Below are positions 1 to 32,000 of a stretch of 32,000 nucleotides of DNA, in pieces. Within the stretch, counting starts at the first letter, position 1. Each line of letters begins with the position of its first letter. The notes under the pieces are model-generated. The model was not told the origin of the DNA, did no database searches, and worked only from the letters and a program-made list of their open reading frames with translations. The position numbers and the translations under genes are program-made. Origin of the DNA: Candidatus Omnitrophota bacterium (GTDB lineage Bacteria; Omnitrophota; Gorgyraeia; Zapsychrales; JANLHA01); contig OY759724.1 in the NCBI GenBank assembly GCA_963662715.1, positions 1 to 32,000 on the forward strand, given 5' to 3'.

Positions 1-3000
1 CATTCATACTCACCCAATTAATCCCCATATCACTCATCACATTTATGTCCTGCCAGTTGATTCCTGTATCTGATAGAACATCCAAATCCTGCCAGTTGAT
101 CCCCGCATCACTCAGGATATCCAGATCCTGCCAGTTAATTCCCGCGTTCGTCATATCACTCATACTCACCCAGTTCATCCCCATATCACTCATCACATCT
201 ATATCCAGCCAGTTGATCCCCGCATCACTCAAATCATTCACACTCACCCAATTGATTCCCATATCACTCATCACATTCAAATCCTGCCAGTTGATCCCTG
301 TATCACTCAATACATCCAAATCCTGCCAGTTGATCCCTGCGTCACTCATCACATCTATGTCCAGCCAATTGATCCCCGCATCACTTAAATCATTCACACT
401 CACCCAATTAATCCCCATATCACTCATCACATTTATGTCCTGCCAATTAACCCCCGCATCACTCAACACATCAATATCCGACCAGTTGATTCCCGCATCT
501 GATAGGACATCCAAATCCGACCAATTGATCCCTGTATCACTTAACACATCCAAATCCTGCCAGTTGATCCCCGCGTCCGAAAGAACATCGATATCCACCC
601 AGTTGATCCCCGCATTCGTCATATCACTCATACTCACCCAGTTCATCCCCATATCACTCATCACATCGATATCCACCCAGTTGATCCCCGCGTCACTTAA
701 ATCATTCACACTCACCCAATTAATCCCCGCGTCACTCATCACATTTATGTCCTGCCAGTTGATTCCCGTATCTGAGAGTACATCCAAGTCCACCCAGTTG
801 ATCCCCGCATCACTCATCACATCGATGTCCAGCCAGTTTATCCCCGCGTCACTTAAATCATTCACACTCACCCAATTGATACCCATATCACTCATCACAT
901 CGATATCCAGCCAGTTGATCCCTGTATCACTTAACACATTCAAATCCTGCCAGTTGATCCCCGCATCGCTCAGCACATCCAGGTCCAGCCAGTTGATTCC
1001 TGCGTCCGAAAGAACATCGATGTCCTGCCAGTTGATCCCCGCATCACTCAGCACATCTATATCCAGCCAGTTTATCCCCGCGTCACTCATATCATTCACA
1101 CTCACCCAATTAATTCCCATATCACTCATCACATTTATGTCCTGCCAGTTGATTCCTGTATCTGAGAGTACATCCAAATCCCGCCAATTAATCCCCGCAT
1201 CACTTAACACATCCAAATCCGACCAGTTGATCCCTGTATCACTTAACACATCCAAATCCTGCCAGTTGATCCCCGCGTCCGAAAGAACATCGATGTCCAG
1301 CCAGTTGATCCCCGCATTCGTCATATCACTCATACTCACCCAGTTCATCCCCATATCACTCATCACATCAATGTCCTGCCAGTTTATCCCCGCATCACTT
1401 AAATCATTCACACTCAACCAATTAATCCCCATATCACTCATCACATTCAAATCCTGCCAGTTGATCCCTGTATCACTCAATACATCAATGTCCAACCAGT
1501 TGATCCCCGTATCACTCATCACATCGATATCCAGCCAGTTGATTCCCGCATCACTTAAATCATTCACACTCACCCAATTGATACCCATATCACTCATCAC
1601 ATTTATATCCTGCCAATTGATTCCCGTATCTGAGAGCACATCCAAGTCCAGCCAGTTGATCCCTGTATCACTTAATACATCAATGTCCAGCCAGTTTATC
1701 CCCGTATCTGAAAGAACATCCAAATCCACCCAGTTGATCCCCGCATCACTCATCACATCAATGTCCAGCCAGTTTATCCCCGCGTCACTCATATCATTCA
1801 CACTCACCCAATTAATCCCCATATCACTCATCACATTTATGTCCTGCCAGTTGATCCCCGTATCGCTTAATACATCAATATCCGACCAGTTGATCCCTAT
1901 ATCACTCATCACATTTATGTCCTGCCAGTTGATTCCTGTATCTGATAGAACATCCAAATCCTGCCAGTTGATCCCCGCATCACTCATCACATCTATATCC
2001 AGCCAGTTTATCCCCGCGTCACTTAAATCATTCACACTCACCCAATTAATCCCCATATCACTCATCACATTTATGTCCTGCCAGTTGATCCCTGTGTCAC
2101 TTAATACATCCAGGTCCAGCCAGTTGATCCCCGCGTCACTTAATACATCCAGGTCCAGCCAGTTTATTCCCGCATTCGTCATATCACTCATACTCACCCA
2201 GTTCATCCCCGTATCACTCATCACATCAATATCCAGCCAGTTGATCCCCGCATCACTTAAATCATTCACACTCACCCAATTGATACCCATATCACTCATC
2301 ACATTCAAATCCTGCCAGTTGATCCCTATATCACTCAATACATCAATGTCCAGCCAATTAATTCCCGCATCACTCATCACATTTATATCCTGCCAGTTGA
2401 TCCCCGTATCTGAAAGGACATCCAGGTCCAGCCAATTAATTCCCGTATCACTCATCACATCTATATCCAGCCAGTTGATCCCCGCATCACTTAAATCATT
2501 CACACTCACCCAATTGATCCCCATATCACTCATCACATTTATATCCTGCCAGTTGATCCCTGTATCACTCAATACATCCAAATCCTGCCAGTTGATCCCC
2601 GCATCACTTAATACATCAATATCTGACCAGTTGATCCTCGCATCACTTAATACATCAATATCTGCCCAGTTGATCCCCGCATCACTCATCACATTGATAT
2701 CCAGCCAGTTGATCCCCGCGTCACTCATATCATTCACACTCACCCAGTTAATCCCCATATCGCTCATCACATTCAAATCCTGCCAGTTGATCCCTGTATC
2801 GCTCAATACATCCAAATCCTGCCAGTTGATCCCCGCGTCACTTAACACATCCAGATCCTGCCAGTTAATTCCCGCGTTCGTCATATCACTCATACTCACC
2901 CAGTTTATCCCCATATCACTCATCACATCTATATCCAGCCAGTTGATCCCCGCGTCACTCATATCATTCACACTCACCCAATTGATTCCCATATCACTCA

Positions 3001-3432
3001 TCACATTTATGTCCTGCCAGTTGATCCCCGTATCCGAGAGCACATCCATATCCTGCCAGTTAATTCCCGTATCACTCATCACATCTATATCCAACCAGTT
3101 GATCCCCGCATTCGTCATATCACTCATACTCACCCAGTTCATCCCCGCATCACTCATCACATCGATGTCCAGCCAGTTTATCCCCGCGTCACTTAAATCA
3201 TTCACACTCACCCAATTAATCCCCATATCACTCATCACATTCAAATCCTGCCAGTTGATCCCCGTATCACTTAATACATCAATATCTGCCCAGTTGATCC
3301 CCGTATCACTCATCACATCTATATCCAGCCAGTTGATCCCCGCGTTCGTCATATCACTCATACTCACCCAGTTCATCCCCGTATCACTCATCACATCTAT
3401 GTCCAGCCAGTTGATCCCCGCGTCACTTAAAT
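1..3432 (-). repeat. HOR copy H1 (A-type, 88 units). The phase of the copy boundary is arbitrary.
   Basis: Fully parsed into 88 x 39 nt units. Variants include a at 20, cct at 2636-2638, gct at 2762-2764, and t at 2906. Confidence 0.9.
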
Positions 3433-6400
3433 CATTCATACTCACCCAATTGATCCCCATATCACTCATCACATTTATGTCCTGCCAGTTGATTCCTGTA
3501 TCTGATAGAACATCCAAATCCTGCCAGTTGATCCCCGCATCACTCAGGATATCCAGATCCTGCCAGTTAATTCCCGCGTTCGTCATATCACTCATACTCA
3601 CCCAGTTCATCCCCATATCACTCATCACATCTATATCCAGCCAGTTGATCCCCGCATCACTCAAATCATTCACACTCACCCAATTGATTCCCATATCACT
3701 CATCACATTCAAATCCTGCCAGTTGATCCCTGTATCACTCAATACATCCAAATCCTGCCAGTTGATCCCTGCGTCACTCATCACATCTATGTCCAGCCAA
3801 TTGATCCCCGCATCACTTAAATCATTCACACTCACCCAATTAATCCCCATATCACTCATCACATTTATGTCCTGCCAATTAACCCCCGCATCACTCAACA
3901 CATCAATATCCGACCAGTTGATTCCCGCATCTGATAGGACATCCAAATCCGACCAATTGATCCCTGTATCACTTAACACATCCAAATCCTGCCAGTTGAT
4001 CCCCGCGTCCGAAAGAACATCGATATCCACCCAGTTGATCCCCGCATTCGTCATATCACTCATACTCACCCAGTTCATCCCCATATCACTCATCACATCG
4101 ATATCCAGCCAGTTGATCCCCGCGTCACTTAAATCATTCACACTCACCCAATTAATCCCCGCGTCACTCATCACATTTATGTCCTGCCAGTTGATTCCCG
4201 TATCTGAGAGTACATCCAAGTCCACCCAGTTGATCCCCGCATCACTCATCACATCGATGTCCAGCCAGTTTATCCCCGCGTCACTTAAATCATTCACACT
4301 CACCCAATTGATACCCATATCACTCATCACATCGATATCCAGCCAGTTGATCCCTGTATCACTTAACACATTCAAATCCTGCCAGTTGATCCCCGCATCG
4401 CTCAGCACATCCAGGTCCAGCCAGTTGATTCCTGCGTCCGAAAGAACATCGATGTCCTGCCAGTTGATCCCCGCATCACTCAGCACATCTATATCCAGCC
4501 AGTTTATCCCCGCGTCACTCATATCATTCACACTCACCCAATTAATTCCCATATCACTCATCACATTTATGTCCTGCCAGTTGATTCCTGTATCTGAGAG
4601 TACATCCAAATCCCGCCAATTAATCCCCGCATCACTTAACACATCCAAATCCGACCAGTTGATCCCTGTATCACTTAACACATCCAAATCCTGCCAGTTG
4701 ATCCCCGCGTCCGAAAGAACATCGATGTCCAGCCAGTTGATCCCCGCATTCGTCATATCACTCATACTCACCCAGTTCATCCCCATATCACTCATCACAT
4801 CAATGTCCTGCCAGTTTATCCCCGCATCACTTAAATCATTCACACTCAACCAATTAATCCCCATATCACTCATCACATTCAAATCCTGCCAGTTGATCCC
4901 TGTATCACTCAATACATCAATGTCCAACCAGTTGATCCCCGTATCACTCATCACATCGATATCCAGCCAGTTGATTCCCGCATCACTTAAATCATTCACA
5001 CTCACCCAATTGATACCCATATCACTCATCACATTTATATCCTGCCAATTGATTCCCGTATCTGAGAGCACATCCAAGTCCAGCCAGTTGATCCCTGTAT
5101 CACTTAATACATCAATGTCCAGCCAGTTTATCCCCGTATCTGAAAGAACATCCAAATCCACCCAGTTGATCCCCGCATCACTCATCACATCAATGTCCAG
5201 CCAGTTTATCCCCGCGTCACTCATATCATTCACACTCACCCAATTAATCCCCATATCACTCATCACATTTATGTCCTGCCAGTTGATCCCCGTATCGCTT
5301 AATACATCAATATCCGACCAGTTGATCCCTATATCACTCATCACATTTATGTCCTGCCAGTTGATTCCTGTATCTGATAGAACATCCAAATCCTGCCAGT
5401 TGATCCCCGCATCACTCATCACATCTATATCCAGCCAGTTTATCCCCGCGTCACTTAAATCATTCACACTCACCCAATTAATCCCCATATCACTCATCAC
5501 ATTTATGTCCTGCCAGTTGATCCCTGTGTCACTTAATACATCCAGGTCCAGCCAGTTGATCCCCGCGTCACTTAATACATCCAGGTCCAGCCAGTTTATT
5601 CCCGCATTCGTCATATCACTCATACTCACCCAGTTCATCCCCGTATCACTCATCACATCAATATCCAGCCAGTTGATCCCCGCATCACTTAAATCATTCA
5701 CACTCACCCAATTGATACCCATATCACTCATCACATTCAAATCCTGCCAGTTGATCCCTATATCACTCAATACATCAATGTCCAGCCAATTAATTCCCGC
5801 ATCACTCATCACATTTATATCCTGCCAGTTGATCCCCGTATCTGAAAGGACATCCAGGTCCAGCCAATTAATTCCCGTATCACTCATCACATCTATATCC
5901 AGCCAGTTGATCCCCGCATCACTTAAATCATTCACACTCACCCAATTGATCCCCATATCACTCATCACATTTATATCCTGCCAGTTGATCCCTGTATCAC
6001 TCAATACATCCAAATCCTGCCAGTTGATCCCCGCATCACTTAATACATCAATATCTGACCAGTTGATCCCCGCATCACTTAATACATCAATATCTGCCCA
6101 GTTGATCCCCGCATCACTCATCACATTGATATCCAGCCAGTTGATCCCCGCGTCACTCATATCATTCACACTCACCCAGTTAATCCCCATATCACTCATC
6201 ACATTCAAATCCTGCCAGTTGATCCCTGTATCGCTCAATACATCCAAATCCTGCCAGTTGATCCCCGCGTCACTTAACACATCCAGATCCTGCCAGTTAA
6301 TTCCCGCGTTCGTCATATCACTCATACTCACCCAGTTCATCCCCATATCACTCATCACATCTATATCCAGCCAGTTGATCCCAGCGTCACTCATATCATT

Positions 6401-9400
6401 CACACTCACCCAATTGATTCCCATATCACTCATCACATTTATGTCCTGCCAGTTGATCCCCGTATCCGAGAGCACATCTATATCCAGCCAGTTAATTCCC
6501 GTATCACTCATCACATCTATATCCAACCAGTTGATCCCCGCATTCGTCATATCACTCATACTCACCCAGTTCATCCCCGCATCACTCATCACATCGATGT
6601 CCAGCCAGTTTATCCCCGCGTCACTTAAATCATTCACACTCACCCAATTAATCCCCATATCACTCATCACATTCAAATCCTGCCAGTTGATCCCCGTATC
6701 ACTTAATACATCAATATCTGCCCAGTTGATCCCCGTATCACTCATCACATCTATATCCAGCCAGTTGATCCCCGCGTTCGTCATATCACTCATACTCACC
6801 CAGTTCATCCCCGTATCACTCATCACATCTATGTCCAGCCAGTTGATCCCCGCGTCACTTAAATCATTCATACTTACCCAATTGATCCCCATATCACTCA
6901 TCACATTTATGTCCTGCCAGTTGATTCCTGTATCTGATAGAACATCCAAATCCTGCCAGTTGATCCCCGCATCACTCAGGATATCCAGATCCTGCCAGTT
7001 AATTCCCGCGTTCGTCATATCACTCATACTCACCCAGTTCATCCCCATATCACTCATCACATCTATATCCAGCCAGTTGATCCCCGCATCACTCAAATCA
7101 TTCACACTCACCCAATTGATTCCCATATCACTCATCACATTCAAATCCTGCCAGTTGATCCCTGTATCACTCAATACATCCAAATCCTGCCAGTTGATCC
7201 CTGCGTCACTCATCACATCTATGTCCAGCCAATTGATCCCCGCATCACTTAAATCATTCACACTCACCCAATTAATCCCCATATCACTCATCACATTTAT
7301 GTCCTGCCAATTAACCCCCGCATCACTCAACACATCAATATCCGACCAGTTGATTCCCGCATCTGATAGGACATCCAAATCCGACCAATTGATCCCTGTA
7401 TCACTTAACACATCCAAATCCTGCCAGTTGATCCCCGCGTCCGAAAGAACATCGATATCCACCCAGTTGATCCCCGCATTCGTCATATCACTCATACTCA
7501 CCCAGTTCATCCCCATATCACTCATCACATCGATATCCACCCAGTTGATCCCCGCGTCACTTAAATCATTCACACTCACCCAATTAATCCCCGCGTCACT
7601 CATCACATTTATGTCCTGCCAGTTGATTCCCGTATCTGAGAGTACATCCAAGTCCACCCAGTTGATCCCCGCATCACTCATCACATCGATGTCCAGCCAG
7701 TTTATCCCCGCGTCACTTAAATCATTCACACTCACCCAATTGATACCCATATCACTCATCACATCGATATCCAGCCAGTTGATCCCTGTATCACTTAACA
7801 CATTCAAATCCTGCCAGTTGATCCCCGCATCGCTCAGCACATCCAGGTCCAGCCAGTTGATTCCTGCGTCCGAAAGAACATCGATGTCCTGCCAGTTGAT
7901 CCCCGCATCACTCAGCACATCTATATCCAGCCAGTTTATCCCCGCGTCACTCATATCATTCACACTCACCCAATTAATTCCCATATCACTCATCACATTT
8001 ATGTCCTGCCAGTTGATTCCTGTATCTGAGAGTACATCCAAATCCCGCCAATTAATCCCCGCATCACTTAACACATCCAAATCCGACCAGTTGATCCCTG
8101 TATCACTTAACACATCCAAATCCTGCCAGTTGATCCCCGCGTCCGAAAGAACATCGATGTCCAGCCAGTTGATCCCCGCATTCGTCATATCACTCATACT
8201 CACCCAGTTCATCCCCATATCACTCATCACATCAATGTCCTGCCAGTTTATCCCCGCATCACTTAAATCATTCACACTCAACCAATTAATCCCCATATCA
8301 CTCATCACATTCAAATCCTGCCAGTTGATCCCTGTATCACTCAATACATCAATGTCCAACCAGTTGATCCCCGTATCACTCATCACATCGATATCCAGCC
8401 AGTTGATTCCCGCATCACTTAAATCATTCACACTCACCCAATTGATACCCATATCACTCATCACATTTATATCCTGCCAATTGATTCCCGTATCTGAGAG
8501 CACATCCAAGTCCAGCCAGTTGATCCCTGTATCACTTAATACATCAATGTCCAGCCAGTTTATCCCCGTATCTGAAAGAACATCCAAATCCACCCAGTTG
8601 ATCCCCGCATCACTCATCACATCAATGTCCAGCCAGTTTATCCCCGCGTCACTCATATCATTCACACTCACCCAATTAATCCCCATATCACTCATCACAT
8701 TTATGTCCTGCCAGTTGATCCCCGTATCGCTTAATACATCAATATCCGACCAGTTGATCCCTATATCACTCATCACATTTATGTCCTGCCAGTTGATTCC
8801 TGTATCTGATAGAACATCCAAATCCTGCCAGTTGATCCCCGCATCACTCATCACATCTATATCCAGCCAGTTTATCCCCGCGTCACTTAAATCATTCACA
8901 CTCACCCAATTAATCCCCATATCACTCATCACATTTATGTCCTGCCAGTTGATCCCTGTGTCACTTAATACATCCAGGTCCAGCCAGTTGATCCCCGCGT
9001 CACTTAATACATCCAGGTCCAGCCAGTTTATTCCCGCATTCGTCATATCACTCATACTCACCCAGTTCATCCCCGTATCACTCATCACATCAATATCCAG
9101 CCAGTTGATCCCCGCATCACTTAAATCATTCACACTCACCCAATTGATACCCATATCACTCATCACATTCAAATCCTGCCAGTTGATCCCTATATCACTC
9201 AATACATCAATGTCCAGCCAATTAATTCCCGCATCACTCATCACATTTATATCCTGCCAGTTGATCCCCGTATCTGAAAGGACATCCAGGTCCAGCCAAT
9301 TAATTCCCGTATCACTCATCACATCTATATCCAGCCAGTTGATCCCCGCATCACTTAAATCATTCACACTCACCCAATTGATCCCCATATCACTCATCAC

Positions 9401-12400
9401 ATTTATATCCTGCCAGTTGATCCCTGTATCACTCAATACATCCAAATCCTGCCAGTTGATCCCCGCATCACTTAATACATCAATATCTGACCAGTTGATC
9501 CTCGCATCACTTAATACATCAATATCTGCCCAGTTGATCCCCGCATCACTCATCACATTGATATCCAGCCAGTTGATCCCCGCGTCACTCATATCATTCA
9601 CACTCACCCAGTTAATCCCCATATCGCTCATCACATTCAAATCCTGCCAGTTGATCCCTGTATCGCTCAATACATCCAAATCCTGCCAGTTGATCCCCGC
9701 GTCACTTAACACATCCAGATCCTGCCAGTTAATTCCCGCGTTCGTCATATCACTCATACTCACCCAGTTTATCCCCATATCACTCATCACATCTATATCC
9801 AGCCAGTTGATCCCCGCGTCACTCATATCATTCACACTCACCCAATTGATTCCCATATCACTCATCACATTTATGTCCTGCCAGTTGATCCCCGTATCCG
9901 AGAGCACATCCATATCCTGCCAGTTAATTCCCGTATCACTCATCACATCTATATCCAACCAGTTGATCCCCGCATTCGTCATATCACTCATACTCACCCA
10001 GTTCATCCCCGCATCACTCATCACATCGATGTCCAGCCAGTTTATCCCCGCGTCACTTAAATCATTCACACTCACCCAATTAATCCCCATATCACTCATC
10101 ACATTCAAATCCTGCCAGTTGATCCCCGTATCACTTAATACATCAATATCTGCCCAGTTGATCCCCGTATCACTCATCACATCTATATCCAGCCAGTTGA
10201 TCCCCGCGTTCGTCATATCACTCATACTCACCCAGTTCATCCCCGTATCACTCATCACATCTATGTCCAGCCAGTTGATCCCCGCGTCACTTAAATCATT
10301 CATACTCACCCAATTGATCCCCATATCACTCATCACATTTATGTCCTGCCAGTTGATTCCTGTATCTGATAGAACATCCAAATCCTGCCAGTTGATCCCC
10401 GCATCACTCAGGATATCCAGATCCTGCCAGTTAATTCCCGCGTTCGTCATATCACTCATACTCACCCAGTTCATCCCCATATCACTCATCACATCTATAT
10501 CCAGCCAGTTGATCCCCGCATCACTCAAATCATTCACACTCACCCAATTGATTCCCATATCACTCATCACATTCAAATCCTGCCAGTTGATCCCTGTATC
10601 ACTCAATACATCCAAATCCTGCCAGTTGATCCCTGCGTCACTCATCACATCTATGTCCAGCCAATTGATCCCCGCATCACTTAAATCATTCACACTCACC
10701 CAATTAATCCCCATATCACTCATCACATTTATGTCCTGCCAATTAACCCCCGCATCACTCAACACATCAATATCCGACCAGTTGATTCCCGCATCTGATA
10801 GGACATCCAAATCCGACCAATTGATCCCTGTATCACTTAACACATCCAAATCCTGCCAGTTGATCCCCGCGTCCGAAAGAACATCGATATCCACCCAGTT
10901 GATCCCCGCATTCGTCATATCACTCATACTCACCCAGTTCATCCCCATATCACTCATCACATCGATATCCACCCAGTTGATCCCCGCGTCACTTAAATCA
11001 TTCACACTCACCCAATTAATCCCCGCGTCACTCATCACATTTATGTCCTGCCAGTTGATTCCCGTATCTGAGAGTACATCCAAGTCCACCCAGTTGATCC
11101 CCGCATCACTCATCACATCGATGTCCAGCCAGTTTATCCCCGCGTCACTTAAATCATTCACACTCACCCAATTGATACCCATATCACTCATCACATCGAT
11201 ATCCAGCCAGTTGATCCCTGTATCACTTAACACATTCAAATCCTGCCAGTTGATCCCCGCATCGCTCAGCACATCCAGGTCCAGCCAGTTGATTCCTGCG
11301 TCCGAAAGAACATCGATGTCCTGCCAGTTGATCCCCGCATCACTCAGCACATCTATATCCAGCCAGTTTATCCCCGCGTCACTCATATCATTCACACTCA
11401 CCCAATTAATTCCCATATCACTCATCACATTTATGTCCTGCCAGTTGATTCCTGTATCTGAGAGTACATCCAAATCCCGCCAATTAATCCCCGCATCACT
11501 TAACACATCCAAATCCGACCAGTTGATCCCTGTATCACTTAACACATCCAAATCCTGCCAGTTGATCCCCGCGTCCGAAAGAACATCGATGTCCAGCCAG
11601 TTGATCCCCGCATTCGTCATATCACTCATACTCACCCAGTTCATCCCCATATCACTCATCACATCAATGTCCTGCCAGTTTATCCCCGCATCACTTAAAT
11701 CATTCACACTCAACCAATTAATCCCCATATCACTCATCACATTCAAATCCTGCCAGTTGATCCCTGTATCACTCAATACATCAATGTCCAACCAGTTGAT
11801 CCCCGTATCACTCATCACATCGATATCCAGCCAGTTGATTCCCGCATCACTTAAATCATTCACACTCACCCAATTGATACCCATATCACTCATCACATTT
11901 ATATCCTGCCAATTGATTCCCGTATCTGAGAGCACATCCAAGTCCAGCCAGTTGATCCCTGTATCACTTAATACATCAATGTCCAGCCAGTTTATCCCCG
12001 TATCTGAAAGAACATCCAAATCCACCCAGTTGATCCCCGCATCACTCATCACATCAATGTCCAGCCAGTTTATCCCCGCGTCACTCATATCATTCACACT
12101 CACCCAATTAATCCCCATATCACTCATCACATTTATGTCCTGCCAGTTGATCCCCGTATCGCTTAATACATCAATATCCGACCAGTTGATCCCTATATCA
12201 CTCATCACATTTATGTCCTGCCAGTTGATTCCTGTATCTGATAGAACATCCAAATCCTGCCAGTTGATCCCCGCATCACTCATCACATCTATATCCAGCC
12301 AGTTTATCCCCGCGTCACTTAAATCATTCACACTCACCCAATTAATCCCCATATCACTCATCACATTTATGTCCTGCCAGTTGATCCCTGTGTCACTTAA

Positions 12401-21400: not shown

Positions 21401-24400
21401 ATCACTCATCACATCGATATCCAGCCAGTTGATCCCCGCATCACTTAAATCATTCACACTCACCCAGTTAATCCCCATGTCACTCATAACATTTATGTCC
21501 TGCCAGTTGATCCCTGTATCACTTAACACATCCAGGTCCACCCAATTGATCCCCGCATCGCTCAGCACATCCAAATCCAGCCAGTTGATTCCCGTATCTG
21601 ATAGAACATCCAAATCCTGCCAGTTGATCCCCGCATCACTCATCACATCGATGTCCAACCAATTGATCCCCGCGTCACTCATATCATTCACACTCACCCA
21701 ATTGATCCCCATGTCACTCATCACATTTATGTCCTGCCAGTTGATTCCTGTATCTGAAAGCACATCCAAATCCCGCCAATTAATCCCCGCATCACTTAAC
21801 ACATTCAAATCCGACCAGTTGATTCCTGTATCACTTAACACATCCAAATCCTGCCAGTTGATCCCCGCGTCCGAAAGAACATCGATGTCCAGCCAGTTGA
21901 TCCCCGCATTCGTCATATCACTCATACTCACCCAGTTCATCCCCATATCACTCATCACATCAATGTCCTGCCAGTTGATCCCCGCATCACTTAAATCATT
22001 CACACTCACCCAATTAATCCCCATATCACTCATCACATTCAAATCCTGCCAATTTATCCCCGTATCTGAGAGTACATCCAAGTCCACCCAGTTAATTCCC
22101 GCATCTGAAAGGACATCAATGTCCAGCCAGTTGATTCCCGCATCACTTAAATCATTCACACTCACCCAATTGATCCCCATATCACTCATCACATTCAAAT
22201 CCTGCCAATTTATCCCCGTATCTGAGAGTACATCCAAGTCCAGCCAGTTGATCCCTGTATCACTTAATACATCAATGTCCAGCCAGTTGATCCCCGTATC
22301 ACTTAACACATCGATGTCCAGCCAGTTTATCCCCGCGTCACTCATCACATCAATGTCCAGCCAGTTGATCCCCGCATCGCTCAAATCATTCACGCTCACC
22401 CAATTAATTCCCATATCACTCATCACATTTATGTCCTGCCAGTTAATTCCTGTATCTGATAGAACATCCAAATCCTGCCAGTTAATCCCCGCATCACTCA
22501 GGATATTCAAGTCCAGCCAGTTAATTCCCGTATCTGAGAGCACATCCAAATCCTGCCAGTTGATCCCCGCGTCACTCATCACATCTATGTCCAACCAGTT
22601 GATCCCCGCGTCACTCATATCATTCACATTCACCCAATTGATCCCCATATCACTCATCACATTCAAATCCTGCCAGTTGATCCCCGTATCACTTAACACA
22701 TCCATATCCGACCAGTTTATCCCCGCATCACTCAGGATATCCAAGTCCAGCCAGTTGATTCCCGCGTTCGTCATATCACTCATACTCACCCAGTTCATCC
22801 CCGTATCACTCATCACATCAATATCCAGCCAGTTGATCCCCGCGTCACTTAAATCATTCACACTCACCCAATTGATCCCCATATCACTCATCACATTCAA
22901 ATCCTGCCAATTGATCCCCGTATCGCTTAATACATCCACATCCTGCCAATTTATCCCCGCATCACTCAGGATATCCAAGTCCAGCCAGTTGATCCCCGTA
23001 TCACTCAACACATCCAGATCCAGCCAGTTGATCCCCGCGTCACTCATCACATCTATATCCAGCCAATTGATCCCCGCGTCACTTAAATCATTCACACTCA
23101 CCCAATTGATCCCCATGTCACTCATCACATTTATGTCCTGCCAATTAACCCCCGTATCACTTAACACATTCAAATCCTGCCAGTTGATCCCTGCATCACT
23201 TAATACATCAATATCTGCCCAGTTGATCCCCGCATCACTTAATACATCTATGTCCAGCCAGTTGATCCCCGCATCACTCATCACATCGATGTCCAGCCAG
23301 TTTATCCCCGCGTCACTCATATCATTCACACTCACCCAGTTAATCCCCATGTCACTCATCACATTCAAATCCTGCCAGTTAATCCCCGTATCCGATAGCA
23401 CATCCAAATCTAACCAATTAATCCCCGTATCACTTAAGACATCAATATCCAGCCAGTTGATTCCCGCATTCGTCATATCACTCATACTCACCCAGTTCAT
23501 CCCCATATCACTCATCACATCTATGTCCAGCCAGTTGATCCCCGCGTCACTCATATCATTCACACTCACCCAGTTAATCCCCATGTCACTCATCACATTT
23601 ATATCCTGCCAGTTGATCCCCGTATCCGAGAGCACATCCATATCCTGCCAGTTGATCCCCGCATCGCTCAGGATATCCAAGTCCAGCCAGTTGATCCCCG
23701 CGTTCGTCATATCACTCATACTCACCCAGTTCATCCCGATATCACTCATCACATCGATATCCAGCCAGTTGATCCCCGCGTCACTTAAATCACTCACACT
23801 CACCCAATTAATCCCCATATCACTCATCACATTTATGTCCTGCCAGTTGATCCCCGTATCCGAGAGCACATCCATATCCTGCCAGTTGATCCCCGCATCA
23901 CTCAGGATATCCAAATCCAGCCAATTGATCCCCGCATTCGTCATATCACTCATACTCACCCAGTTCATCCCCGCATCACTCATCACATCTATATCCAGCC
24001 AGTTAATCCCCGCATCACTTAAATCATTCACGCTCACCCAGTTAATACCCATGTCACTCATAACATTTATGTCCTGCCAGTTGATCCCCGTATCCGATAG
24101 CACATCTAAATCCTGCCAGTTGATCCCCGCATCACTCAGGATATCCAAGTCCAGCCAGTTAATTCCCGCGTTCGTCATATCACTCATACTCACCCAGTTC
24201 ATCCCCGTATCACTCATCACATCGATATCCAGCCAGTTGATCCCCGCGTCACTTAAATCATTCACACTCACCCAATTGATCCCCATATCACTCATCACAT
24301 TCAAATCCTGCCAGTTGATCCCCGTATCCGAGAGCACATCCAGATCCTGCCAGTTGATCCCCGCATCGCTCATCACATCGATGTCCAGCCAGTTGATCCC

Positions 24401-27400
24401 CGCGTCACTTAAATCATTCACACTCACCCAATTGATCCCTATATCACTCATCACATTTATGTCCTGCCAATTAACCCCCGCATCACTTAACACATCAATA
24501 TCCGACCAGTTGATCCCCGTATCTGATAGGACATCCAAATCCGACCAATTGATCCCTGTATCTGAAATAACATCAATGTCCGACCAGTTGATCCCCGCGT
24601 CCGAAAGAACATCGATATCCAGCCAGTTGATCCCCGCGTTCGTCATATCACTCATACTCACCCAGTTCATCCCCATATCACTCATCACATCGATATCCAC
24701 CCAGTTGATCCCCGCATCACTTAAATCATTCACACTCACCCAATTGATCCCCATATCACTCATCACATTTATGTCCTGCCAGTTGATCCCTGTATCACTC
24801 AATACATCCATATCCTGCCAGTTAATCCCCGCATCACTCATCACATCGATATCCAGCCAGTTGATCCCCGCATCACTTAAATCATTCACACTCACCCAGT
24901 TAATCCCCATGTCACTCATAACATTTATGTCCTGCCAGTTGATCCCTGTATCACTTAACACATCCAGGTCCACCCAATTGATCCCCGCATCGCTCAGCAC
25001 ATCCAAATCCAGCCAGTTGATTCCCGTATCTGATAGAACATCCAAATCCTGCCAGTTGATCCCCGCATCACTCATCACATCGATGTCCAACCAATTGATC
25101 CCCGCGTCACTCATATCATTCACACTCACCCAATTGATCCCCATATCACTCATCACATTTATGTCCTGCCAGTTGATTCCTGTATCTGAAAGCACATCCA
25201 AATCCCGCCAATTAATCCCCGCATCACTTAACACATTCAAATCCGACCAGTTGATTCCTGTATCACTTAACACATCCAAATCCTGCCAGTTGATCCCCGC
25301 GTCCGAAAGAACATCGATGTCCAGCCAGTTGATCCCCGCATTCGTCATATCACTCATACTCACCCAGTTCATCCCCATATCACTCATCACATCAATGTCC
25401 TGCCAGTTGATCCCCGCATCACTTAAATCATTCACACTCACCCAATTAATCCCCATATCACTCATCACATTCAAATCCTGCCAATTTATCCCCGTATCTG
25501 AGAGTACATCCAAGTCCACCCAGTTAATTCCCGCATCTGAAAGGACATCAATGTCCAGCCAGTTGATTCCCGCATCACTTAAATCATTCACACTCACCCA
25601 ATTGATCCCCATATCACTCATCACATTCAAATCCTGCCAATTTATCCCCGTATCTGAGAGTACATCCAAGTCCACCCAGTTAATTCCCGCATCTGAAAGG
25701 ACATCAATGTCCAGCCAGTTGATCCCCGTATCACTTAACACATCGATGTCCAGCCAGTTTATCCCCGCGTCACTCATCACATCAATGTCCAGCCAGTTGA
25801 TCCCCGCATCGCTCAAATCATTCACGCTCACCCAATTAATTCCCATATCACTCATCACATTTATGTCCTGCCAGTTAATTCCTGTATCTGATAGAACATC
25901 CAAATCCTGCCAGTTAATCCCCGCATCACTCAGGATATTCAAGTCCAGCCAGTTAATTCCCGTATCTGAGAGCACATCCAAATCCTGCCAGTTGATCCCC
26001 GCGTCACTCATCACATCTATGTCCAACCAGTTGATCCCCGCGTCACTCATATCATTCACATTCACCCAATTGATCCCCATATCACTCATCACATTCAAAT
26101 CCTGCCAGTTGATCCCCGTATCACTTAACACATCCATATCCGACCAGTTTATCCCCGCATCACTCAGGATATCCAAGTCCAGCCAGTTGATTCCCGCGTT
26201 CGTCATATCACTCATACTCACCCAGTTCATCCCCGTATCACTCATCACATCAATATCCAGCCAGTTGATCCCCGCGTCACTTAAATCATTCACACTCACC
26301 CAATTGATCCCCATATCACTCATCACATTCAAATCCTGCCAATTGATCCCCGTATCGCTTAATACATCCACATCCTGCCAATTTATCCCCGCATCACTCA
26401 GGATATCCAAGTCCAGCCAGTTGATCCCCGTATCACTCAACACATCCAGATCCAGCCAGTTGATCCCCGCGTCACTCATCACATCTATATCCAGCCAATT
26501 GATCCCCGCGTCACTTAAATCATTCACACTCACCCAATTGATCCCCATGTCACTCATCACATTTATGTCCTGCCAATTAACCCCCGTATCACTTAACACA
26601 TTCAAATCCTGCCAGTTGATCCCTGCATCACTTAATACATCAATATCTGCCCAGTTGATCCCCGCATCACTTAATACATCTATGTCCAGCCAGTTGATCC
26701 CCGCATCACTCATCACATCGATGTCCAGCCAGTTTATCCCCGCGTCACTCATATCATTCACACTCACCCAGTTAATCCCCATGTCACTCATCACATTCAA
26801 ATCCTGCCAGTTAATCCCCGTATCCGATAGCACATCCAAATCTAACCAATTAATCCCCGTATCACTTAAGACATCAATATCCAGCCAGTTGATTCCCGCA
26901 TTCGTCATATCACTCATACTCACCCAGTTCATCCCCATATCACTCATCACATCTATGTCCAGCCAGTTGATCCCCGCGTCACTCATATCATTCACACTCA
27001 CCCAGTTAATCCCCATGTCACTCATCACATTTATATCCTGCCAGTTGATCCCCGTATCCGAGAGCACATCCATATCCTGCCAGTTGATCCCCGCATCGCT
27101 CAGGATATCCAAGTCCAGCCAGTTGATCCCCGCGTTCGTCATATCACTCATACTCACCCAGTTCATCCCGATATCACTCATCACATCGATATCCAGCCAG
27201 TTGATCCCCGCGTCACTCATATCATTCACACTCACCCAGTTAATCCCCATGTCACTCATCACATTTATGTCCTGCCAGTTGATCCCCGTATCCGAGAGCA
27301 CATCTAAATCCTGCCAGTTGATCCCCGCATCACTCAGGATATCCAAATCCAGCCAATTGATCCCCGCATTCGTCATATCACTCATACTCACCCAGTTCAT

Positions 27401-30400
27401 CCCCGCATCACTCATCACATCGATATCCTGCCAGTTAATCCCCGCATCACTTAAATCATTCACGCTCACCCAGTTAATACCCATGTCACTCATAACATTT
27501 ATGTCCTGCCAGTTGATCCCCGTATCCGATAGCACATCTAAATCCTGCCAGTTGATCCCCGCATCACTCAGGATATCCAAGTCCAGCCAGTTAATTCCCG
27601 CGTTCGTCATATCACTCATACTCACCCAGTTCATCCCCGTATCACTCATCACATCGATATCCAGCCAGTTGATCCCCGCGTCACTTAAATCATTCACACT
27701 CACCCAATTGATCCCCATATCACTCATCACATTCAAATCCTGCCAGTTGATCCCCGTATCCGAGAGCACATCCAGATCCTGCCAGTTGATCCCCGCATCG
27801 CTCATCACATCGATGTCCAGCCAGTTGATCCCCGCGTCACTTAAATCATTCACACTCACCCAATTGATCCCTATATCACTCATCACATTTATGTCCTGCC
27901 AATTAACCCCCGCATCACTTAACACATCAATATCCGACCAGTTGATCCCCGCATCTGATAGGACATCCAAATCCGACCAATTGATCCCTGTATCTGAAAT
28001 AACATCAATATCCGACCAGTTGATCCCCGCGTCCGAAAGAACATCGATATCCAGCCAGTTGATCCCCGCGTTCGTCATATCACTCATACTCACCCAGTTC
28101 ATCCCCATATCACTCATCACATCGATATCCACCCAGTTGATCCCCGCATCACTTAAATCATTCACACTCACCCAATTGATCCCCATATCACTCATCACAT
28201 TTATGTCCTGCCAGTTGATCCCTGTATCTGATAGAACATCCATATCCTGCCAGTTGATCCCCGCATCACTCATCACATCGATATCCAGCCAGTTGATCCC
28301 CGCGTCACTTAAATCATTCACACTCAACCAGTTAATCCCCATGTCACTCATAACATTTATGTCCTGCCAGTTGATCCCTGTATCTGATAGAACATCCAAA
28401 TCCTGCCAGTTGATCCCCGCATCGCTCATCACATCCAAATCCAGCCAGTTGATTCCCGTATCTGATAGAACATCCAAATCCTGCCAGTTGATCCCCGCAT
28501 CACTCATCACATCGATGTCCAACCAATTGATCCCCGCGTCACTCATATCATTCACACTCACCCAATTGATCCCCATATCACTCATCACATTTATGTCCTG
28601 CCAGTTGATTCCTGTATCACTCAACACATCCAAATCCCGCCAATTAATCCCCGCATCACTTAACACATTCAAATCCGACCAGTTGATCCCTGTATCACTT
28701 AACACATCAATGTCCTGCCAGTTAATCCCCGCGTCACTTAACACATCAATATCCAGCCAGTTGATCCCTGCATTCGTCATATCACTCATACTCACCCAGT
28801 TCATCCCCATATCACTCATCACATCAATGTCCTGCCAGTTGATCCCCGCATCACTTAAATCATTCACACTCACCCAATTGATCCCCATATCACTCATCAC
28901 ATTCAAATCCTGCCAGTTGATCCCCGCGTCACTTAACACATCGATATCCTGCCAGTTGATCCCCGCGTCACTTAACACATCGATATCCAGCCAGTTGATC
29001 CCCGCATCACTTAAATCATTCACACTCACCCAATTGATACCCATATCACTCATCACATTTATGTCCTGCCAGTTGATCCCCGTATCTGAGAGTACATCCA
29101 AGTCCAGCCAGTTGATTCCCGCATCACTTAAAACATCCAAATCCAGCCAGTTGATTCCCGTATCACTTAACACATCGATGTCCAGCCAGTTTATCCCCGC
29201 GTCACTCATCACATCAATGTCCAGCCAGTTGATCCCCGCATCGCTCAAATCATTCACGCTCACCCAATTAATTCCCATATCACTCATCACATTTATGTCC
29301 TGCCAGTTGATTCCTGTATCTGAAAGAACATCCAAATCCTGCCAGTTGATCCCCGCATCACTCAGGATATTCAAGTCCAGCCAGTTAATTCCCGTATCTG
29401 AGAGCACATCCAAATCCTGCCAGTTGATCCCCGCGTCACTCATCACATCTATGTCCAACCAGTTAATCCCCGCGTCACTCATATCATTCACACTCACCCA
29501 ATTGATCCCCATATCACTCATCACATTCAAATCCTGCCAGTTGATCCCCGTATCACTTAACACATCCATATCCGACCAGTTTATCCCCGCATCACTCAGG
29601 ATATCCAAGTCCAGCCAGTTGATTCCCGCGTTCGTCATATCACTCATACTCACCCAGTTCATCCCCGTATCACTCATCACATCAATATCCAGCCAGTTGA
29701 TCCCCGCGTCACTTAAATCATTCACACTCACCCAATTGATCCCCATATCACTCATCACATTCAAATCCTGCCAATTGATCCCCGTATCGCTTAATACATC
29801 CACATCCTGCCAATTTATCCCCGCATCACTCAGGATATCCAAGTCCAGCCAGTTGATCCCCGTATCACTCAACACATCCAGATCCAGCCAGTTGATCCCC
29901 GCGTCACTCATCACATCTATATCCAGCCAATTGATCCCCGCGTCACTTAAATCATTCACACTCACCCAATTGATCCCCATGTCACTCATCACATTTATGT
30001 CCTGCCAATTAACCCCCGTATCACTTAACACATTCAAATCCTGCCAGTTGATCCCTGCATCACTTAATACATCAATATCTGCCCAGTTGATCCCCGCATC
30101 ACTTAATACATCTATGTCCAGCCAGTTGATCCCCGCATCACTCATCACATCGATGTCCAGCCAGTTTATCCCCGCGTCACTCATATCATTCACACTCACC
30201 CAGTTAATCCCCATGTCACTCATCACATTCAAATCCTGCCAGTTAATCCCCGTATCCGATAGCACATCCAAATCTAACCAATTAATCCCCGTATCACTTA
30301 AGACATCAATATCCAGCCAGTTGATTCCCGCATTCGTCATATCACTCATACTCACCCAGTTCATCCCCATATCACTCATCACATCTATGTCCAGCCAGTT

Positions 30401-32000
30401 GATCCCCGCGTCACTCATATCATTCACACTCACCCAGTTAATCCCCATGTCACTCATCACATTCAAATCCTGCCAGTTGATCCCCGTATCCGAGAGCACA
30501 TCCATATCCTGCCAGTTGATCCCCGCATCGCTCAGGATATCCAAGTCCAGCCAGTTGATCCCCGCGTTCGTCATATCACTCATACTCACCCAGTTCATCC
30601 CGATATCACTCATCACATCGATATCCAGCCAGTTGATCCCCGCGTCACTCATATCATTCACACTCACCCAGTTAATCCCCATGTCACTCATCACATTTAT
30701 ATCCTGCCAGTTGATCCCCGTATCCGAGAGCACATCTAAATCCTGCCAGTTGATCCCCGCATCACTCAGGATATCCAAATCCAGCCAATTGATCCCCGCA
30801 TTCGTCATATCACTCATACTCACCCAGTTCATCCCCGCATCACTCATCACATCGATATCCTGCCAGTTGATCCCCGCATCACTTAAATCATTCATGCTCA
30901 CCCAGTTAATACCCATGTCACTCATAACATTTATGTCCTGCCAGTTGATCCCCGTATCCGATAGCACATCTAAATCCTGCCAGTTGATCCCCGCATCACT
31001 CAGGATATCCAAGTCCAGCCAGTTAATTCCCGCGTTCGTCATATCACTCATACTCACCCAGTTCATCCCCGTATCACTCATCACATCGATATCCAGCCAG
31101 TTGATCCCCGCGTCACTTAAATCATTCACACTCACCCAATTGATCCCCATATCACTCATCACATTCAAATCCTGCCAGTTGATCCCCGTATCCGAGAGCA
31201 CATCCAGATCCTGCCAGTTGATCCCCGCATCGCTCATCACATCGATGTCCAGCCAGTTGATCCCCGCGTCACTTAAATCATTCACACTCACCCAATTGAT
31301 CCCTATATCACTCATCACATTTATGTCCTGCCAATTAACCCCCGCATCACTTAACACATCAATATCCGACCAGTTGATCCCCGCATCTGATAGGACATCC
31401 AAATCCGACCAATTGATCCCTGTATCTGAAATAACATCAATGTCCGACCAGTTGATCCCCGCGTCCGAAAGAACATCGATATCCAGCCAGTTGATCCCCG
31501 CGTTCGTCATATCACTCATACTCACCCAGTTCATCCCCATATCACTCATCACATCGATATCCACCCAGTTGATCCCCGCGTCACTTAAATCATTCACACT
31601 CACCCAATTGATCCCCATATCACTCATCACATTTATGTCCTGCCAGTTGATCCCTGTATCACTCAATACATCCATATCCTGCCAGTTAATCCCCGCATCA
31701 CTCATCACATCGATATCCAGCCAGTTGATCCCCGCATCACTTAAATCATTCACACTCACCCAGTTAATCCCCATGTCACTCATAACATTTATGTCCTGCC
31801 AGTTGATTCCTGTATCTGATAGAACATCCAAATCCTGCCAGTTGATCCCTGCATCGCTCATCACATCCAAATCCAGCCAGTTGATCCCCGTATCTGATAG
31901 AACATCCAAATCCTGCCAGTTTATCCCCGCATCACTCATCACATCGATGTCCAGCCAGTTAATCCCCGCGTCACTTAAATCATTCACACTCACCCAATTG
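1..32000 (-). CDS. Internal fragment of a giant tandem-repeat protein, partial at both ends. At least 10,666 codons of a 13-aa acidic, Trp-containing repeat, consensus x-D-[LI]-[DN]-V-[LM]-S-D-x-G-I-N-W.
   Basis: Reverse-complement translations: 92-130 = QDLDILSDAGINW; 53-91 = QDLDVLSDTGINW; 14-52 = QDINVMSDMGINW; 209-247 = VSVNDLSDAGINW; 131-169 = VSMSDMTNAGINW. I parsed all 88 units of the first HOR copy; each is exactly 39 nt with no in-frame TTA/CTA/TCA on the + strand (these would be minus-strand stops). The same codon phase holds at 2-4 and at 31997-31999, and every landmark checked satisfies pos = 14 mod 39. The Trp codon is invariant. Variation concentrates at minus-strand wobble positions. 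Ser is kept across both codon families (AGT/AGC and TCA/TCG), and the hydrophobic position 6 uses all six Leu codons plus ATG/ATT. No start or stop lies in the window. Confidence 0.8.
3433..6864 (-). repeat. HOR copy H2 (A-type).
   Basis: In register with H1 at +3432. Private variants at 6479 and 6486 (atctatatccag versus atccatatcctg in the other copies). It has ccc at 6068-6070 where H1 has cct. Confidence 0.9.
6865..10296 (-). repeat. HOR copy H3 (A-type).
   Basis: In register at +6864. Shares the H1 alleles at the 2637-, 2762-, 2906- and 2951-equivalent sites. Has t at 6875 (acttaccc), shared only with H6. Confidence 0.9.
10297..13728 (-). repeat. HOR copy H4 (A-type, apparent H1/H3-like to H2/H5-like recombinant).
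   Basis: Carries the H1/H3 alleles at 12933 and 13058 but the H2/H5 alleles at 13202 and 13247. Confidence 0.88.
13729..17160 (-). repeat. HOR copy H5 (A-type).
   Basis: In register at +13728. Shares the H2 alleles at the 2637-, 2762-, 2906- and 2951-equivalent sites. Private g at 16822 (ccag versus ccaa). Confidence 0.9.
17161..20592 (-). repeat. HOR copy H6, a chimera. It is A-type up to 18889 except for one B-type unit at 18149-18187, and B-type from 18890.
   Basis: Units k0-k43 match H1-H5 apart from k25. From k44 (18890) the units match the B-type cognates, e.g. 18929-18967 is identical to 22361-22399. Confidence 0.85.
18149..18187 (-). other. Single-unit B-type patch inside an otherwise A-type HOR copy (putative short gene-conversion tract).
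   Basis: 18149-18187 (ccagttgattcccgtatctgatagaacatccaaatcctg) is identical to the B-type cognate at 21581-21619. It differs at about 10 positions from the A-type cognates (989-1027, 4421-4459, and so on). The flanking units 18110-18148 and 18188-18226 remain A-type. Confidence 0.8.
20593..24024 (-). repeat. HOR copy H7 (B-type).
   Basis: Starts with cattcacgctcaccc at 20593, in register with the A-type copies. Confidence 0.88.
24025..27456 (-). repeat. HOR copy H8 (B-type).
   Basis: cattcacgctcaccc at 24025. The first ~240 nt differ from H7 at only about 2 sites. Unit-sized differences occur elsewhere, e.g. 25675-25713 versus 22243-22281. Confidence 0.88.
27457..30888 (-). repeat. HOR copy H9 (B-type).
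   Basis: cattcacgctcaccc at 27457. Shows patchy unit replacements relative to H8, e.g. around 28220-28450 versus 24790-25020. Confidence 0.86.
30889..32000 (-). repeat. HOR copy H10 (B-type, truncated by the window edge).
   Basis: cattcatgctcaccc at 30889 = 27457 + 3432. Colinear with the start of H9. Confidence 0.85.

Follow-up and report, generated by a model that had tools for sequence, protein, structure and literature searches.

Here we show that a 32,000-nucleotide (nt) stretch of contig OY759724.1 from a Candidatus Omnitrophota bacterium (assembly GCA_963662715.1), hereafter termed the window, represents an internal segment of a genuine minus-strand protein-coding gene, the visible part of which consists of tandem copies of a single 13-amino-acid (aa) unit. 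Sequence relationships place this gene, with its extremely expanded array, in an unnamed family of Candidatus Omnitrophota, which we term the INW-repeat family, a name coined here from its G-[IV]-N-W-x-D core. The best overall explanation of our findings is that the protein is a secreted polyanionic stalk, or long cell-surface fibre, made of short capped helices, and we regard this reading as probable. Giant genes are a hallmark of the Omnitrophota; their functions are open, and many of their products have no detectable domains. One such dark giant family is now defined by its unit, its architecture, its distribution across the phylum and its position in a pilus/F-type ATPase locus.

Six-frame translation of the window gives 332–1,774 stops in each of four frames and none in minus frame 1. 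The internal coding segment occupies positions 2–31999 of the minus strand (10,666 codons, read from 31999 down to 2), with neither a start nor a stop in view. Its translation contains 821 Trp residues, and all 820 intervals between them are exactly 13 residues long. This Trp-to-Trp spacing delimits 820 complete 39-nt units on the minus strand at positions 20–31999, with the consensus NW[QLV][DS][ILVM][DN][VD][LM]SD[ATM]GI. Asn-Trp is invariant in all 820 units and there are no indels across the array, which comprises 55 distinct unit types at the amino acid level and 179 at the nucleotide level. Tandem Repeats Finder reports a single array spanning positions 1–32000, with periods of 234 and 390 nt. 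The visible part of the protein has a mass of 1.18 MDa and a net charge of approximately −2012. It uses only 13 amino acid types, with K, E, F, Y, H, C and P all absent from its 10,666 residues, and it contains 19% Asp, 12 Arg and neither Lys nor Glu. The G+C content of the window is 45–47%, and a constant GC skew of about −0.53 indicates a strong strand bias. Searches of the window against Pfam and NCBIfam identified no domain, a PDB sequence search with the repeat gave no match, and neither an Rfam search nor a blastn search against plasmids matched the window. The Pfam matches that do appear, to BNR_6, MAGI_u1, DUF7409 and Lysostaphin_N, are summed weak scores on a periodic sequence, no single stretch of which passes. 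A sequence-only reading of this DNA, made without database searches, had placed the window wholly inside one giant minus-strand repeat gene with both ends out of view, and had counted 820 copies of a 13-aa unit and no recognisable globular domain; the stop-free frame, the uniform Trp spacing and the empty domain searches bear this out on each count.

The opposite strand is also open. A shadow open reading frame (ORF) at positions 3–32000 of the plus strand is free of stops over 10,666 codons and translates into a Ser/Leu/Ile/Pro-rich repeat (..SCQLIPASL..). The two open frames share third codon positions, and three-base periodicity alone therefore cannot tell them apart. However, the mean column entropy at codon positions 1, 2 and 3 of the minus frame is 0.66, 0.38 and 0.89, respectively, which is the usual order of variability (2 < 1 < 3), whereas in the plus frame positions 1 and 2 are swapped, such that second codon positions are more variable than first. 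The ratio of nonsynonymous to synonymous differences (pN/pS), calculated between shifted copies, is 0.23–0.44 for the minus frame and 0.46–0.75, approximately twofold higher, for the plus frame. At unit column 8 Ser is encoded by AGY 627 times and by TCR 128 times, and Leu at unit column 7 is written with all six of its codons. The use of both Ser codon families and of six Leu codons at one column points to selection on the minus-frame amino acid. The third position of TGG is invariant in 820 of 820 units, for which the coding of Trp in the minus frame is the sole explanation, and all of the homologues that were found match the minus translation. That the plus frame is just as long and just as free of stops follows automatically from minus-frame composition, because a plus-frame stop would need NNY|TAN or NNT|CAN on the minus strand, and the array contains neither Tyr nor His, while Gln occurs in it only after TGG. 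Shadow ORFs, listed at up to 1,489 aa, likewise lie antisense to related arrays. We therefore read the plus-strand frame as not coding and consider that there is next to no chance of its being a real gene. Since the antisense frames of such arrays are automatically open, gene callers could pick the wrong strand.

One further regularity of the array is explained by coding on neither strand. The codon at unit column 5, which specifies Asp, Asn or Ser, has T as its third base in 820 of 820 units (GAT, AAT or AGT), giving an invariant synonymous T every 39 nt, unlike columns 0, 3 and 9, where GAC and AAC are freely used.

The sequence-only reading had itself named a non-coding or eukaryotic satellite among the findings that would overturn it. 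A satellite that is open in frame by chance would be in keeping with a 39-nt tandem array that has higher-order periods and a GC skew of this size, and in which two frames are open. However, when random substitutions were simulated at the observed density they produced 12.5 stops for every 88 units, and 25 in the set of 179 distinct units, where none is observed, and not one of 2,000 simulations was free of stops. The nine complete copies of a super-repeat within the array (see below) differ at 438 sites, 119, 42 and 277 of which fall at codon positions 1, 2 and 3, respectively. Changes at this many sites would yield about 13.6 stops at random and again there are none. Among the variable codons of these copies 241 show only synonymous differences and 95 change the amino acid (72% synonymous), whereas random change would be expected to give 18% synonymous substitutions and 3.1% stops. 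Neutral drift of the array is thus excluded. The satellite explanation also sits poorly with the ordering of codon-position variability, with 820 units that lack any indel, with the absence of an Rfam match and with the existence of protein homologues that have signal peptides and folded domains and are found in bacterial operons. Together the codon and homologue evidence rules out a satellite for practical purposes, and we attach only a negligible probability to it. The claim that the array is coding, prokaryotic and read from the minus strand accordingly holds, on codon statistics and on homologues in Omnitrophota metagenome-assembled genomes (MAGs) with bacterial neighbours.

Self-comparison at unit steps reveals that the array is organised as a super-repeat of 88 units (3,432 nt, 1,144 aa) that is present in 9.3 copies. 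Identity is 98.0% at a distance of one super-repeat period and 96.5%, 94.7%, 92.8% and 91.1% at two, three, four and five periods. In gene order, copies 1–4 lie on the minus strand at positions 28568–31999, 25136–28567, 21704–25135 and 18272–21703 (3,432 nt each), and show 90–98.7% identity among themselves and with the later copies. Copies 5–9 and the partial copy 10, which occupy positions 1–18271 of the same strand, are at least 99.5% identical and show 0–16 nt differences from copy 7. Within the super-repeat, in contrast, the units are only about 70% identical at the DNA level, with synonymous sites approximately 0.5 different. Such divergence between units, set against the near-identity of the copies, indicates that the 88-unit block is old and constrained and that its multiplication is recent. 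In the window, unit types B and C are confined to even positions, and a 26-aa (two-unit) structural period was considered on this basis. It was rejected, as the same parity is absent from the diverged arrays of loci L048, L019, L009, L011, L017 and L038, and the array of L025 has a period of three units. The parity of the window thus reflects its duplication history, through modules of four and six units, and no structural rule.

The near-identity of the copies in 1–18271 makes their number assembly-dependent. The giant size that had been claimed for this gene therefore stands in so far as 10,666 codons are open, and is qualified by the fact that over half of the window consists of nearly identical 3.4-kb copies. 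It could be argued that the gene is real but that the assembler has inflated or deflated the array, perhaps by several copies, through mis-counting the 3,432-nt copies in this region, and the 0–16 nt that separate copies 5–10 from copy 7 would fit such an error, as would the short-read assemblies of relatives, which break within arrays or hold runs of N there. However, copies 1–4, which are clearly distinct at 90–97% identity, alone account for about 13.7 kb of unambiguous array, and identity declines smoothly with distance, as is expected for stepwise tandem duplication. Moreover, the few variants in copies 5–10 are mostly copy-specific, with four positions common to two copies each, and in an independent MAG diverged units build up an array of at least 31.5 kb that could be neither collapsed nor expanded. 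We therefore judge a substantial mis-count to be unlikely, although not so unlikely as to be set aside, and the copy number of nearly identical blocks needs long-read validation.

Members of the INW-repeat family are defined by tandem 13-aa units that have an invariant N-W, an Asp two residues after the W, hydrophobic residues at +3 and +6 from the W, and G-[IV] before the next N-W, and all 820 units of the window have these features. A 650-aa piece of the window used as a query retrieved 29 proteins, most of them marked as partial, and every one that is named is from Candidatus Omnitrophota. A scan of one genome per GTDB species identified 77 loci, nearly all in Omnitrophota MAGs, most of the arrays of which are cut off by a contig end or by runs of N, and a HMMER search over 1.84 billion representative proteins identified 323 relatives, the longest being 2,809, 2,304 and 1,292 aa. 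E-values to relatives reach 1e-101 and 0. Their arrays range from about 20 to more than 700 units, and share 45–69% amino acid identity with the window over 1,144 aa. The closest, at L042, L037 and L054, are 62–69% identical, L042 being 69% identical at both the amino acid and the nucleotide level, and a protein-based scan of metagenome contigs found no close relative. Array charge varies widely between species (K+R 0.4%–8.5%, D+E 6%–19%) and the 13-aa frame is constant. The window, which uses Asp and never Glu, is at the acidic extreme of the family, and hyper-acidic arrays are recurrent (L044, L054 and L073, with K+R of at most 0.7%). In searches of Pfam, NCBIfam, PDB and full-text literature we did not find this family or its repeat type described.

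A second giant is present in this family. On JADFZK010000004.1 (isolate nHGRbin18), loci L019 and L048 are separated by 5,569 codons, share one frame and one 13-aa register, and together form one ORF of at least 10,514 aa, which includes a 3.2-kb unread stretch between the loci and does not reach its 3′ end. Its N-terminal part carries a signal peptide as well as Ig-like domains. The 380 + 305 units that could be read share only about 57% DNA identity and yet are perfectly spaced at 13 aa, indicating that very long INW arrays are not merely recent expansions or artefacts, and that the length of the unit is under strict constraint.

Both ends of the window gene lie outside the window, and the architecture given here is that of relatives. 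Those that are complete, or that include an end of the gene, show a four-part build: a Sec signal peptide, N-terminal beta domains of varying type (tandem Ig-like, LamG or beta-propeller repeats), the 13-aa array (G[IV]NWxDxxxL[ST]xx) and a conserved helical/coiled-coil C-terminal module of about 250 aa that ends VV[IV]K[AST]W[FY]E. Among the aligned hits, the beta region that follows the signal peptide is in part conserved. The C-terminal module is present in P0002, P0007, P0011, P0015, P0016, P0025, P0032, P0034, L054 and L055, and a search with it found in-family relatives only. P0002 (868 aa) and P0007 (900 aa) are complete proteins, the helical module of which ends VVxAWxE, and P0032 (2,809 aa) is likewise complete, with the usual ends of the family. 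AlphaFold predicts two confident beta-sandwich domains in P0002 (predicted local distance difference test (pLDDT) scores of 70–90) that match tandem Ig domains in PDB. The gene of L042 is divided between two contigs of its MAG. Its 5′ part encodes a signal peptide, a LamG domain (PF13385, E = 1.6e-32), more beta regions and an Ig-like region, followed by the array, and its 3′ part, L055, ends ...VVIKTWFETSE. Ig_Rha78A_N and SBBP heads are found in further close relatives.

The genomic neighbourhood, which we examined in relatives by tblastn with the genes of locus L002 against all loci, is also conserved. Upstream, the order is GT2, DUF2304, GT2, a 192-aa membrane protein, a secretin, a TPR protein, two FGE-sulfatase-domain proteins and the INW gene, with the secretin found at 57 loci, the TPR protein at 56 and the FGE-sulfatase-domain pair at 44. 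Downstream, it is a 435-aa protein (18 loci), an F-type ATPase operon (18 loci), PilB/GspE (T2SSE, 16 loci), PilC/GspF (T2SSF, 10 loci) and a pilin. These counts represent essentially every locus that holds the relevant side. The best-scoring models are PilQ and GspD for the secretin and GspE and PilB for the T2SSE-type ATPase, and the F-type alpha and beta subunits of L002 pass the atpA and atpD cutoffs. The protein of about 435 aa that is encoded directly 3′ of the repeat gene (12610–13917 in L002, 15235–16548 in L054) combines a signal peptide with a coiled coil and a transmembrane helix at its C terminus. It has no match to any known family and is a candidate to anchor the C-terminal module in the membrane or to partner it. 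The two FGE-sulfatase-domain proteins (PF03781; positions 6796–9991 of L002, and 43 other loci) are paralogues encoded between the TPR and repeat genes, and have no NCBIfam name. The ring protein PorK/GldK of the type IX secretion system is a member of the same PF03781 family, and the pair may therefore be envelope-machine parts rather than enzymes. There is no ABC/MFP/TolC gene and no TpsB/POTRA gene among the called neighbours in L001 and L002 (for ABC/MFP/TolC, the called Pfam-family neighbours), and the same neighbour set recurs across loci. The sequence-only reading had proposed inspecting the neighbouring genes for ABC/MFP/TolC or other secretion genes; in relatives, the Sec signal peptide goes together with a neighbourhood of secretin and type IV pilus genes and not with an ABC/MFP/TolC set. 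Co-located 'symbiotic' F-type ATPase/type-4a pilus loci have been described in all Omnitrophota classes (Seymour et al., PMC10066038), and that paper makes no mention of a repeat protein inside them.

How might the unit fold? Two AlphaFold runs analysed with DSSP, one of P0002 with 12 homologues and one of 260 aa of the window with 87 alignment rows, place in every unit a helix of 8–10 residues that starts at the Trp, followed by a loop, x-G-[IV]-N, that is about four residues long. Little diversity was gained from the second alignment, because MAFFT had staggered overlapping window segments. Helix-capping rules are well established and underlie our interpretation of the unit as a short capped helix, in which Asn would be the N-cap and pair with Asp at N3 as a capping box, and Gly at C′ with the following Ile/Val would form a Schellman motif. 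The hydrophobic residues at positions 1 (Trp), 4 (Ile/Leu) and 7 (Leu/Met) would then pack against neighbouring helices. With Asp or Asn every few residues, a transmembrane helix is not possible in any stretch of the array. The EF-hand, DxDxDG and RTX Ca2+-binding motifs, when compared by eye, do not fit the unit. BNR_6 reached a summed Pfam score of 49.1 bits with no stretch passing alone, and did so because D-x-G-x-N-W of the unit resembles an Asp-box. However, in the Asp-box (S-x-D-x-G-x-T-W) Ser is separated from Asp, whereas in the unit (S-D-x-G-x-N-W) the two adjoin and the motif is one residue shorter, and the Asp-box forms a beta-hairpin whereas the 13-aa period and 1-4-7 hydrophobic pattern of the unit fit a helix instead. 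A relationship to the helix-hairpin-helix of the RAD51/DMC1 N-terminal type (G-I-x-x-x-D-[IV]-x-K-L-x-x-A-G), prompted by a weak NCBIfam Dmc1 match that scores 29 bits against a cutoff of 447, is not supported by hhalign, which gives a probability of 3.4% over 24 columns.

A model for the function of the protein can be built from these features. According to the model, the protein would be exported by Sec and would then pass through, or be displayed at, the outer membrane with the aid of the adjacent secretin system. The array, each 13-aa unit of which would form one short helix of about 10 residues, would be a long, thin and strongly negative stalk that keeps the variable binding head at the N terminus well away from the cell and so helps contact with host or prey cells. 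Taking an inferred rise of about 1 nm per unit, the 820 visible units would extend for about 0.8 micrometre, which is several ultrasmall-cell diameters. The C-terminal coiled coil would retain the fibre on its producer, possibly paired with the 435-aa membrane protein. Stalk length could be tuned by duplication of units and of the 88-unit block, the latest duplications in the window being very recent. Several points weigh against this model. The repeat has pLDDT scores of only 35–50 in both AlphaFold runs, leaving its fold and the rise per unit uncertain, and it may be disordered in the absence of cations or partners. The copy number in 1–18271 may be an assembly product, and the architecture and context of the window gene are transferred from relatives that are at most 69% identical to it.

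A less probable alternative is that the array is a polyanionic coat or cation-binding matrix, rather than a tether that bears a head. An Asp-rich array of this kind might chelate Ca2+, Mg2+ or metals, might fold only with cations bound, as RTX repeats do, and could make a hydrated, protease-resistant layer or sheath round a very small cell. The composition of the window (19% Asp, only 12 Arg across 10,666 residues, neither Lys nor Glu, and a net charge near −2012), the absence of a confident AlphaFold prediction and the recurrence of hyper-acidic variants at L044, L054 and L073 would all suit such a role. However, many members are not acidic, and P0001–P0003, L025 and L077 have 6–8% K+R with the same unit, indicating that charge is not the conserved feature. 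The residues that are conserved, namely N, W, D3, the hydrophobics at 4 and 7, G and I/V, suit a folded unit and not a chelating loop, the unit fits none of the Ca2+-binding patterns considered above, and the variable lectin or Ig heads point to binding. On balance a coat or matrix seems rather improbable, and we prefer a stalk that bears a binding head.

How does such a stalk compare with known systems? Giant genes of the Omnitrophota are established, with products of up to 85,804 and 147,155 aa that are often encoded near secretion or pilus genes, and 137 of the 916 proteins of at least 10 kAA (thousand amino acids) in one catalogue are without any database match (Nielsen and Lui, 2026, bioRxiv 10.64898/2026.06.07.730766). 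The window gene would fall in this no-match class. It shares with previously described Omnitrophota giants (West-Roberts et al., 2023, bioRxiv 10.1101/2023.11.21.568195; PMC10066038) the phylum, a scale of more than 10,000 aa, a probable extracellular location and proximity to type II secretion/type IV pilus genes. However, the features of archaeovorins (many transmembrane regions, SecA-DEAD and HEAT) and of dockerin-type giants (dockerin/EF-hand and TSP3) were not found in the window or its relatives, and the visible protein is no mosaic of enzymes but a single 13-aa unit repeated 820 times. Full-text searches of the three giant-protein papers found no mention of the INW family, its unit or its secretin/F-type ATPase position.

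The sequence-only reading had likened the gene to adhesin-, RTX- or haemagglutinin-like surface proteins, and the likeness survives only in the sense of a large secreted surface protein. With fibrillar or repeat-stalk adhesins such as MpIBP, LapA and the Ig-repeat stalks, INW proteins share a plan of export signal, head, stalk of variable length and anchoring end. However, the stalk units of those adhesins are Ig/BIg domains of about 100 aa or the 9-aa RTX beta-roll, whereas the INW unit has 13 aa and is probably a single short helix. RTX adhesins are exported through a C-terminal type I secretion signal and ABC/MFP/TolC, in contrast to the N-terminal Sec signal of INW relatives next to a secretin, and the LPXTG motif is absent from INW proteins. 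Membership of the RTX group was considered and rejected, as the RTX nonapeptide is absent: the unit lacks GG, its period is 13 and not 9, and there is no RTX Pfam match. Likewise the window and the N-termini of 12 relatives have no Pfam match to TPS (Haemagg_act) or to the repeats of filamentous haemagglutinin/TpsA, the repeats of which are about 19–20 aa long and form a beta-helix, whereas the INW unit is predicted to be helical.

A further parallel is provided by the gliding machinery of Mycoplasma mobile, which comprises an F1-like ATPase and giant surface leg proteins; at the loci of INW relatives, the gene for a giant surface protein adjoins an F-type ATPase operon. Both the alpha and the beta subunit of L002 also match the Mycoplasma gliding-ATPase models MMOB1660 and MMOB1670, below cutoff, and the alpha subunits of pilus-adjacent 'symbiotic' ATPases group with Mycoplasma type-2/3 gliding ATPases (Seymour et al., PMC10066038). 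However, INW proteins have no sequence relation to Gli349 or Gli521, and the secretin and type IV pilus genes found at INW loci are lacking in Mycoplasma; a functional link between the INW locus and Mycoplasma gliding is pure conjecture. In our view improbable is a bolder combination, in which the INW unit is a new protein solenoid with one capped 10-residue helix per repeat and, in addition, the fibre is the tether or 'leg' of an Omnitrophota-specific machine. If its first part were true, the solenoid would run to hundreds to thousands of copies without an indel and form fibres of sub-micrometre to micrometre length; if its second were true, a secretin, type IV pilus parts and a non-respiratory F-type ATPase would serve for catching host cells or moving on them.

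The pilus/F-type ATPase locus has been proposed to act in symbiosis or predation, which makes the INW gene a testable candidate for a cell-contact fibre of ultrasmall bacteria. The repeat itself is unusual, having 13 residues drawn from 13 amino acid types, with no Lys or Glu and almost no Arg, and should it fold as predicted it would be of interest for protein design. INW arrays also offer an explanation for why many Omnitrophota MAG contigs end at this locus. At L054 (positions 1–15235 of JBFWOS010000001.1, a 1.2-Mb contig) an array of at least 15 kb contains three short runs of N that mark scaffold gaps and split it into four apparent ORFs, such that annotation would show several medium-sized proteins and no giant. 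In addition, contigs that carry the array sit partly in bins labelled as other phyla. The family gene is found on contigs in MAGs labelled as Saccharibacteria (L007), Rhodobacteraceae (L059, a 4.9-kb contig that is array throughout) and, in many cases, 'uncultured Planctomycetales', and the labels or bins of all of these loci look doubtful. At a further locus, L079 (Gemmatimonadota), the match is confined to the Ig-like region.

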